In this document: positions 470-1,361 of the stretch, one piece after another
Numbering within the stretch: position 1 is the stretch's first letter
Layout: each line of letters starts with the position of its first letter
From: a virus
Taxonomy: Duplodnaviria > Heunggongvirae > Uroviricota > Caudoviricetes
Strand: one strand, 5' to 3'
IMG/VR virus record: IMGVR_UViG_2617270946_000017
Length of the DNA: 5,362 bases
Notes under the pieces: generated by a model
The model's input: only the letters and a program-made list of their open reading frames with translations
Told to the model about the DNA's origin: nothing
The model's database searches: none
Made by a program: the position numbers and the translations under genes

Positions 470-1207
470 TCATTCACTCTCTTTCAAACCAGTTTTAACT
501 GTTTGTGGTTTTGGGTAAGGCTGGACTTTGAATAGCTTTGTGTTAAGGCGTTTTCTGGCTCTCTTGTCCAGAAACCGGATGTAACGAAACTGACGGAATT
601 TATGAACACTGGCTCTGTCGATATTAGCCCGCAGATGTTCACCTCGCTGTCCTCCTCGTTTGATTGCATTCTTGCAAATCTCGTGATACCACTCGCCATC
701 AAGTTCATAGAATGTTGTTTCATGACTGCCTACATAATCAAAATTGCTTGCCTGGTACACGACACCAAGACAGCCACAACGCTCATCTGCAAACGACTGA
801 ACCCACTGCACCTGCGGATAAAGTTGTCTGATTAGTTTGAGCGCGTAACTGATTGCCCTTGATTCGGAGTTTCTCGGCATACAGTCATGCAGCCATAACC
901 GGTTAAGCTCCATATATTCGCGGTTCTGCGTGCCAGTTACGACGCGTGCACCATTGTTTGGATTAAGGGCATAACCCCATTGCATTACGCCAACCAGCTC
1001 CCGTTCTGAAAATATGCCCAGATGAAGGTAGGAATTATTTACGAAACGATGGCTGTAATGTTTATTGACGACGACCAGCCGGGCCAGCCAGCAACTTATT
1101 GTCTCAACCCGTAACTCACGGGAGCCATAACCGACGATATTGTCGTTATAGTGAATAAGTTCAGGCGTGCTGATGATACGGGATGTAACTTGCTTTCTGT
1201 TCCCCAC
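470..1207 (-). CDS. mom: Mom-like DNA-modification (anti-restriction) protein, about 245 aa, proposed GUG start at 1207-1205
   Basis: Sits immediately 3' of, and overlaps by 47 nt, a Com-like zinc-finger ORF, which is the Mu com-mom arrangement. The long open frame has no in-frame ATG between 1367 and 985; the GTG at 1207 is preceded by AAGGAA (8-nt spacing) and gives a size close to Mu Mom (about 231 aa, recalled). Identity rests on synteny and size, not alignment. The frame is open up to 1402, so the true start is uncertain. Confidence 0.6.
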
Positions 1208-1361
1208 GACAGGATTTCCTTGTGTATGTGGGGTGCTCTGTGGCGCTCTGAGATGTGATTTGATTGAGGGTTTTACAGCGCGGACATTTAACTTCCAGAT
1301 AACTGAAGCTGGCTCGTGCCAGTAGCTTGTTACAATGTCGGCACCGTATGTTTCGATACAT
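1161..1361 (-). CDS. com: Com-like zinc-finger translational activator of mom (66 aa)
   Basis: Translation [34 protein letters not shown]... has a CxxC-(15)-CxxC zinc finger and the RC..CNKLL / CPRCK pattern of Mu Com as recalled (MKSIRCKNCNKLL...CPRCK). AGGAGG (1377-1372) lies 10 nt upstream of the ATG at 1361. The 3' end overlaps the mom start, as in Mu. Confidence 0.75.
1202..1233 (-). promoter_or_regulatory. Candidate translation-inhibition stem-loop sequestering the mom start codon (RNA: CCCCAC - 20-nt loop containing AAGGAA - GUGGGG)
   Basis: On the minus strand there is a perfect 6-bp inverted repeat CCCCAC (1233-1228) / GUGGGG (1207-1202). The GUG is the proposed mom start and the AAGGAA SD is in the loop, matching the Mu model in which Com binding opens a hairpin occluding the mom start. 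Confidence 0.4.

Follow-up and report, generated by a model that had tools for sequence, protein, structure and literature searches.

The window, meaning the whole 5,362-nucleotide stretch of DNA analyzed here, spans the right end of a Mu-like prophage that has integrated into the malX gene of E. coli, with its genes on the minus strand (Table 1). Of 5,426 complete E. coli genomes, 226 contain at least 80% of window positions 300-1600. An E. coli copy that is 99.9% identical to the window (L004) carries PGAP/RefSeq annotation for both Com and Mom, with com at coordinates equivalent to 1361-1161 and with a mom product (WP_000528246.1, named 'Mom family adenine methylcarbamoylation protein') that begins at the GTG equivalent to 1207.

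The com product matches the Pfam family Zn_ribbon_Com (PF10122, E = 7.5e-13; 48.2 bits versus a cutoff of 22.9) and is 41% identical to Com of phage Mu. The four cysteines of its zinc ribbon (C7, C10, C26 and C29) are invariant. The com and mom genes overlap by 47 nt, and com ends 44 nt downstream of the mom GUG.

Table 1. Features of the window, listed in the direction of transcription of the prophage genes
Feature	Coordinates	Strand	Details
Gin-type invertase	5267-4695	-	first of the listed prophage genes
Accessory genes	about 3.3 kb in total, between the Gin-type invertase and com	-	
Inverted repeat, 9 bp, AATCGATCG/CGATCGATT, with two GATC sites	1405-1429	.	upstream of com; terminator-pattern scan
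com CDS	1361-1161	-	66 aa, zinc-ribbon translational activator; start ATG 1361, stop 1163-1161
TTA codon in mom frame, TAA in close relatives	1289-1291	-	codon-by-codon comparison with L005, L002, L017 and L030
Predicted Com target hairpin, GCGC[CACAGA]GCAC	1233-1246	-	CC(N)3GAG at 1243-1236; directly 5' of the TIS hairpin
Translation-inhibition hairpin (TIS homologue)	1202-1233	-	5' arm CCCCAC 1233-1228, loop 1227-1208 (20 nt), 3' arm GUGGGG 1207-1202
Predicted inner helix, ACA.GG/CCUGU, AAAU loop	1209-1223	-	RNAfold MFE and centroid; 1223-1221 plus 1219-1218 with 1213-1209
Shine-Dalgarno (SD) AAGGAA	1216-1221	-	8 nt upstream of GUG 1207; inside the hairpin
mom CDS	470-1207	-	245 aa from GTG 1207; Pfam PF25680 Mom, E = 7.8e-78
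GUG start codon of mom, in 3' arm of hairpin	1205-1207	-	sole mom-frame start-type codon downstream of 1369; P(paired) = 1.00
Phage end	342		
Host malX fragment	341-1		

The inverted repeat upstream of com occupies the place where Mu carries AATCGATCGGTAATACAGATCGATT. The mom promoter region of Mu is controlled by Dam and OxyR, and by analogy the repeat is likely the counterpart of that region. A promoter scan of positions 1100-1700 returned none on the minus strand upstream of com, which would fit a promoter that depends on an activator, as that of Mu does.

The initial annotation of this DNA observed that the mom frame has no ATG near the 3' end of com and proposed that mom starts at GTG 1207, which is in frame with the open reading frame at 470-1402. 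The start-type codons of this frame between 1402 and approximately 1075 are only GTG 1402, ATG 1369 and GTG 1207, in agreement with the first observation. A longer Mom that begins at ATG 1369 or GTG 1402 would place the hairpin described below inside the mom coding region, and it can draw on the facts that the mom frame in the window is open from 1402 and that AGGAGG precedes ATG 1369. However, this AGGAGG is just 2 nt from the ATG, and the frame is closed in close relatives that encode Mom. Specifically, a change from GTT to GTA that is synonymous in com creates a mom-frame TAA at window positions 1291-1289 in L005 (E. coli FORC_044, 95% identical), L017 and L030. Thus, the open mom frame at 1402-1208 in the window is incidental, and ATG 1369, which the initial annotation had put forward as the alternative start, is excluded.

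Protein comparisons lead to the same start. The Pfam Mom domain begins at residue 31 when counted from GUG 1207, and across genera the N-termini of Mom align when reading starts at the GUG (MGK..SRILTPP..IVGYGS). The N-terminus encoded in the window is collinear with MGKEKKSRILTKP...IVGYGS of Mu Mom, as read from its own GUG, and with other Mom proteins read in this way. With the PGAP start, the upstream TAA of the relatives and the aligned N-termini all in accord, the start of Mom is fixed at GTG 1207 as first proposed, and we consider a longer protein extremely improbable. Among other annotations, that of Mom in RefSeq Mu is flagged as an error, since its start precedes by 30 nt the GUG assigned in the literature to the stem of the translation-inhibition structure (TIS). 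An annotation error is also flagged in phage Chuche, where the methyltransferase start is at an ATG only 2 nt from the SD.

The GUG start codon of mom is held in a hairpin. On the minus strand, the RNA reads GAGCA CCCCAC AUACACAAGGAAAUCCUGUC GUGGGG AACAG, and the two arms pair perfectly over 6 bp. This stem, with its arms 20 nt apart, had been seen in the letters by the initial annotation, which proposed RNA folding of the junction as a check; RNAfold recovers the stem in every context folded. The outer stem alone has a predicted stability of -9.6 kcal/mol, which becomes -12.6 kcal/mol with the inner helix. A 46-nt local fold gives z = -2.35, such that 4 of 200 shuffled sequences fold as well, and longer contexts are ordinary (z = -0.13 for 101 nt and z = +0.50 for 151 nt). 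Within the window, 4.8% of minus-strand bases fall in the 3' arm of a perfect 6-bp stem with a loop of 3-25 nt, or 0.86% when the stem must have at least five G-C pairs. Thus, the hairpin by itself is only moderately improbable, and the case is carried by comparative evidence. No Rfam family matches positions 1150-1300, and the only two matches in the window at E values up to 1 lie elsewhere and score far below the gathering scores. We rejected a role for the hairpin as a terminator or attenuator, since no run of U nucleotides follows the stem, and a role as an inverted repeat at the DNA level, since nothing points to one.

The SD sequence lies within the loop, as had been claimed, and its duplex with the 3' tail of 16S rRNA is predicted at -5.4 kcal/mol. 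An SD-like purine run is present at the same loop position in every relative. The part of the earlier description that does not stand is the free display of this sequence, since RNAfold pairs the GG of the SD in the inner helix (P(paired) of the SD is approximately 0.42). Thus, the SD is predicted to be partly sequestered, not displayed in an open loop. The inner helix contributes approximately 3 kcal/mol, but its register is not conserved among relatives, which makes it weaker evidence. The large size of the loop, at 20 nt, also counts against an inhibitory hairpin.

A second structure, absent from the initial annotation, is located immediately 5' of the inhibitory hairpin. The target of Com in Mu is a small hairpin that carries CC(N)2-3GAG in its loop, is closed by a C-G pair and adjoins the TIS (PMC6483171). 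The predicted Com target in the window is GAGCGCCACAGAGCACCCC, which agrees at 13 of 19 positions with the 19-mer of Mu on which binding studies were done (GAAUGCCUGCGAGCAUCCC). Its hairpin is weaker than that of Mu, with two G-C pairs, a C.A mismatch and one more pair versus four pairs in Mu. Nucleotide C1233 is common to the Com hairpin and the TIS stem. The bare motif CCNNNGAG occurs six times in the window versus 6.9 expected, so only its position and conservation count. The GCC..GAGC nucleotides are invariant in 25 distinct relatives, for which RNAalifold predicts two closing pairs.

To place these structures among their relatives, we used 80 loci from viral contigs found with the window Com, 19 genome loci found with Mom, and 80 more found with a Com alignment. 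The class with a CCCAC/GUGGG stem comprises 25 distinct junctions, for which RNAalifold predicts both helices. The five core pairs are invariant in this class, such that classical covariation on the core stem is uninformative. Loops differ in both sequence and length (11, 17 or 20 nt in the class, and 14 nt in two further loci); since com is translated through them, their lengths change only in steps of 3 nt. The outermost stem pair is C-G in 22 junctions, U-A in two and U-G in one. The nucleotide at this position that is shared by the two helices (C1233 in the window, U in Mu) can instead pair with the Com hairpin's first base, as G-C in 22 junctions and A-U in three. Thus, one base is common to two helices and both of its pairings covary, in very few evolutionary events. 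Support from covariation amounts to one pair and essentially one or two such events.

The codons that com uses within the RNA elements provide stronger evidence. Across 38 distinct sequences, the Ala, Glu and Pro codons in these elements are GCC, GAG and CCC, respectively, in 38 of 38 cases, whereas every invariant residue of the Com zinc ribbon uses two to five synonymous codons. The His codon alternates between CAC and CAU only together with its pairing partner, and replacement of His by Pro in Com (CAC to CCC) retains pairing. The third position of the Thr codon, which is the first base of the loop, varies freely. These comparisons of sequences demonstrate purifying selection on com codons at the level of the RNA, and we regard this codon usage as the strongest argument.

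The same codons bear on the view that the hairpin has no regulatory role and arises as a by-product where the coding constraints of two genes overlap (...EHPT...C(R)GE in Com and Met-Gly in Mom). Both arms do fall within coding sequence, two frames constrain the 3' arm, and the core stem exhibits no compensatory change within the class. However, the 5' arm is upstream of the mom start and codes for com only, yet its Pro codon never departs from CCC whereas the zinc-ribbon Pro uses four codons. Com also tolerates the His-to-Pro replacement while pairing is kept, and RNA binding reportedly does not require its C-terminal tail, which is described as disordered (PMC6483171). Furthermore, distant relatives differ in both tail peptides and arms and still pair the start codon or the SD. 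We therefore judge a by-product to be very unlikely.

A covariance model (R1) was built on the 25-sequence alignment of the class. It finds a single match in the window, at 1195-1249 on the minus strand with 70.4 bits. On 52 other loci, nearly all matches are located at the com-cargo junction on the coding strand, and the exception is a weak match of 12.8 bits upstream of com in L180. Ten loci outside the training set score 29-43.5 bits.

The hairpin, the start codon it holds, the Com motif and their positions relative to one another are homologous to those of Mu. As a homologue of the Mu TIS, the element is therefore very probably the Com-responsive translational operator of mom in this Mu-like prophage of E. 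coli. Binding of Com at 1246-1233 and opening of the hairpin are inferred from experiments on Mu. According to this model, the mom initiation region of the com-mom mRNA would fold into the hairpin, with the GUG placed in its 3' arm and the SD enclosed and partly paired. Ribosomes would be blocked from initiating, and the toxic DNA-modifying enzyme Mom would not be made. Com, translated from the same mRNA, would bind the small 5' hairpin with its CACAGA loop and CC(N)3GAG motif, which has C1233 in common with the inhibitory stem, and this binding would destabilize the inhibitory hairpin. The SD and GUG would then be exposed and Mom would be translated late in lytic growth. In Mu, melting of the TIS was not observed by SHAPE with a truncated Com (PMC6483171).

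Translational coupling is an alternative that could operate instead of or besides Com: ribosomes translating com would unwind the hairpin and thereby enable initiation at the mom GUG in cis. The com ORF spans the whole hairpin, as it does in Mu and in all relatives of the CCCAC class, and the geometry is that of classical coupled genes. Indeed, because com ends downstream of the GUG, ribosomes that translate it must unwind the hairpin. Coupling alone nevertheless leaves unexplained the invariant CC..GAG and the suppression of synonymous change at Ala GCC and Glu GAG, and com stops before the cargo start in some distant loci (e.g. L179 and L085). Com supplied in trans reportedly suffices in Mu, a result said to come from Wulczyn et al. 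in 1989 and Hattman et al. in 1987. Moreover, Mu Com is described as binding the mom mRNA at the hairpin beside the TIS (PMC6483171). We consider coupling an unlikely explanation for the element, and prefer control by Com, with which ribosomes translating com may act together by making a contribution in cis.

Distant Com loci, with identities down to approximately 37%, have other arm sequences and still pair the start codon or the SD beside CC(N)2-3GAG. Start codons are paired in the helices GCCAC/GUGGC, CCACG/CGUGG, GGCCAU/AUGGCC and GAGCAUCC/GGAUGCUC, and SD sequences are paired in GCCUCCUG/CAGGAGGC and GUCUCCGA/UCGGAGAC. Natural variants such as GCAUCC/GGAUGC have arms that accommodate an AUG. 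Each of the 34 junction representatives has the CC(N)2-3GAG motif no more than 60 nt 5' of the start, compared with 7% of background windows. For 12 of 14 first-set representatives, P(start paired) reaches 0.97 or more, as it does for 11-17% of control triplets from the same loci. Both fractions overstate independence because the representatives are phylogenetically related.

The gene that follows the hairpin is not always mom. In close relatives that carry a C5 methyltransferase (a Mu-like insert in the Stx2c phage LC727881, and L032-L034), identity to the window is 92-98% across com, the Com site and the hairpin, up to GUGGGGAAC. Similarity stops approximately 13 nt past the start codon, beyond which an unrelated gene follows (PF00145). 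In sister lineages the cargo is Mom, a C5 methyltransferase or an N6/N4 methyltransferase, each of them beginning with GUG GGG, and D12 methyltransferases are the cargo of distant Com modules. In phages at greater distance, the helices beside the Com motif have other sequences and hold the start codon or the SD of Mom, of C5 methyltransferases or of D12 methyltransferases. The com-plus-hairpin cassette thus precedes four families of DNA-modifying enzymes: Mom, C5 (PF00145), N6_N4 (PF01555) and D12 (PF02086). Conversely, several of the 19 genome loci found with Mom have no com upstream (L086, L089, L094-L097 and L100), and so Mom is not always under Com control.

These arrangements are consistent with a broader proposal, which we hold with middling confidence. 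The Com site and inhibitory hairpin could form a portable translational-control cassette whose 3' boundary is at the first two or three codons (GUG GGG AAC) of the gene that comes after it, and could represent a widespread family of protein-responsive RNA operators, not contained in Rfam, by which toxic DNA-modifying enzymes are controlled. The placement of com before methyltransferases instead of mom is already published (PMC3299994). In the searchable literature, we found neither the breakpoint just past the start codon nor the RNA family itself described.

Several com-methyltransferase modules in Mu-like prophages are known, including FluMu hin1523, Pnm1 nma1821, Hia5 and phage B3 (PMC3299994, referring to Morgan et al. 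2002), and in them the enzyme gene has been noted to carry possible Com sites at its 5' end (PMC3299994). As in the window, a Com homologue precedes a DNA-modifying anti-restriction enzyme. The cargo in the window is Mom, whereas several of these modules sequester the SD and not the start codon. In addition, com need not overlap the cargo gene in these modules, unlike in the window.

The closest comparison is with Mu (and likewise D108 and SfMu), which has the same operon, with com overlapping mom at the phage's right end. A blastn search against phages aligned Mu only from position 1158 downstream, past the com stop, so the junction itself was compared by eye and with an anchored alignment. 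In this alignment, Mu reads AUGCCUGCGAGCAU-CCCAC-GGAGAAACAUU-GUGGG-AAAAG and the window reads GCGCCACAGAGCAC-CCCAC-AUACACAAGGAAAUCCUGUC-GUGGG-GAACAG. The Mu hairpin, UCCCACGG-AGAAACA-UUGUGGGA, has a GUG in its 3' arm that is in frame with mom (position 558 of L001), and the Mom GUG of Mu has been located in the TIS stem beside the Com hairpin (PMC6483171). Thus, the stem core CCCAC/GUGGG is identical in the two phages, the start codon is in the 3' arm, the SD is within the hairpin, and the same CC(N)3GAGC hairpin is located directly 5' of the TIS. The initial annotation had recognized that the junction follows the logic of Mu mom control, and the same core, the in-frame GUG and the adjoining Com motif bear this out. 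It had also called the sequence diverged, which is true of the loop and flanks but not of the stem core.

The window also differs from Mu. The loop is 20 nt in the window versus 11 nt in Mu, equivalent to three extra com codons. The stem is a perfect 6 bp with a predicted inner helix, versus 8 bp with two G.U pairs in Mu, and predicted stabilities are alike (-9.6 to -12.6 kcal/mol versus -9.3 kcal/mol for the Mu TIS). The SD is AAGGAA where Mu has GGAG, and the Com hairpin of the window includes a C.A mismatch. Natural variants of this kind, including loops of 11-20 nt in 3-nt steps, the covarying outer pair and the shared nucleotide, could inform the design of experiments on hairpin opening by Com. 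Little is added to the mechanism, which is the textbook com/mom lock of Mu conserved in a type of Mu-like prophage. The finding is correct but ordinary: it is the same translational lock as known from phage Mu, in a form whose loop is longer and whose Com hairpin differs slightly.

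A single regulatory cassette, comprising com, the candidate Com site and the inhibitory hairpin, is joined to genes for Mom, a C5 cytosine methyltransferase (PF00145) or an N6_N4 methyltransferase (PF01555). This fusion pattern was found by comparing window positions 1194-1470 with positions 1501-1778 of the Mu-like insert in Stx2c phage LC727881 (L002), and by comparing the Com loci L032-L034, L036-L042, L043 and phage Chuche (L003). Similarity between loci breaks about 13 nucleotides 3' of the GUG, and every cargo protein of the cassette begins with Met-Gly. D12 methyltransferases (PF02086) occur as cargo at distant Com loci.

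Annotated cargo starts in databases conflict with the hairpin logic in two phages. In RefSeq, Mu Mom begins at an ATG (L001 position 528; NC_000929 position 35877) that lies 30 nucleotides 5' of the GUG (L001 558; 35907), and the latter has been placed within the TIS stem (PMC6483171). The N6_N4 methyltransferase of Chuche is annotated from an ATG only 2 nucleotides past GAGGAG (1630 versus 1636 in L003), yet a GUG with 8-nucleotide spacing is present in the 3' arm of the hairpin. A single natural variant alters the predicted Com hairpin itself: around positions 1613-1667 of locus L011, GUGC[CACAGA]GCAC occurs in place of GCGC[CACAGA]GCAC, replacing a C.A mismatch with a U-A pair.

No com was found upstream of position 1201 at several loci encoding Mom homologues (L086, L089, L094-L097 and L100). 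Three of these (L094, L096 and L100) instead share a conserved leader that is rich in G+C and in hairpins (GATGGGCGCCCCGGAAAGTTGCCGCTCTCCGGGGCTG...). The absence of com and the presence of this leader suggest that mom is under different control at these loci.

Features surrounding the cassette in the window
Feature	Position	Strand or location	Basis or note
Host malX, interrupted	341	region 1-342	
Prophage right end (TATAGCGCGGCG...)	342		
97-aa ORF	1618-1911	opposite to the other three ORFs	no Pfam match
DUF826 ORF	2079-2333	minus	Pfam
DUF1378 ORF	2369-2563	minus	Pfam
637-aa ORF, SASA sialate-esterase domain and DUF6645	2696-4609	minus	Pfam
G+C-rich inverted repeat GCCGCCGGT...ACCGGCGGC, then T run	2647-2681	downstream of 637-aa ORF	
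9-bp inverted repeat AATCGATCG/CGATCGATT, two GATC sites	1405-1429	upstream of com	pattern scan

Repeated GGTATCAAA-type motifs are located at positions 350-420. In other E. coli (L004 and L005) this prophage type is integrated elsewhere in the chromosome, and it also resides within Stx phages (L002). Together with the malX site, these varied locations are consistent with transposition.

The inverted repeat following the 637-aa ORF is probably its intrinsic terminator. This repeat also overlaps a weak, sub-threshold match to Rfam Esr41 on the plus strand (22 bits versus a gathering score of 102). The repeat upstream of com was flagged as terminator-like, also on the plus strand, and it is similar to the cluster of GATC sites that precedes the mom promoter in Mu (L001 about 308-350). 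In the window, a stretch of about 3.3 kb that holds the four ORFs (1618-4609) separates com from the invertase gene; in Mu the two genes have nothing between them.
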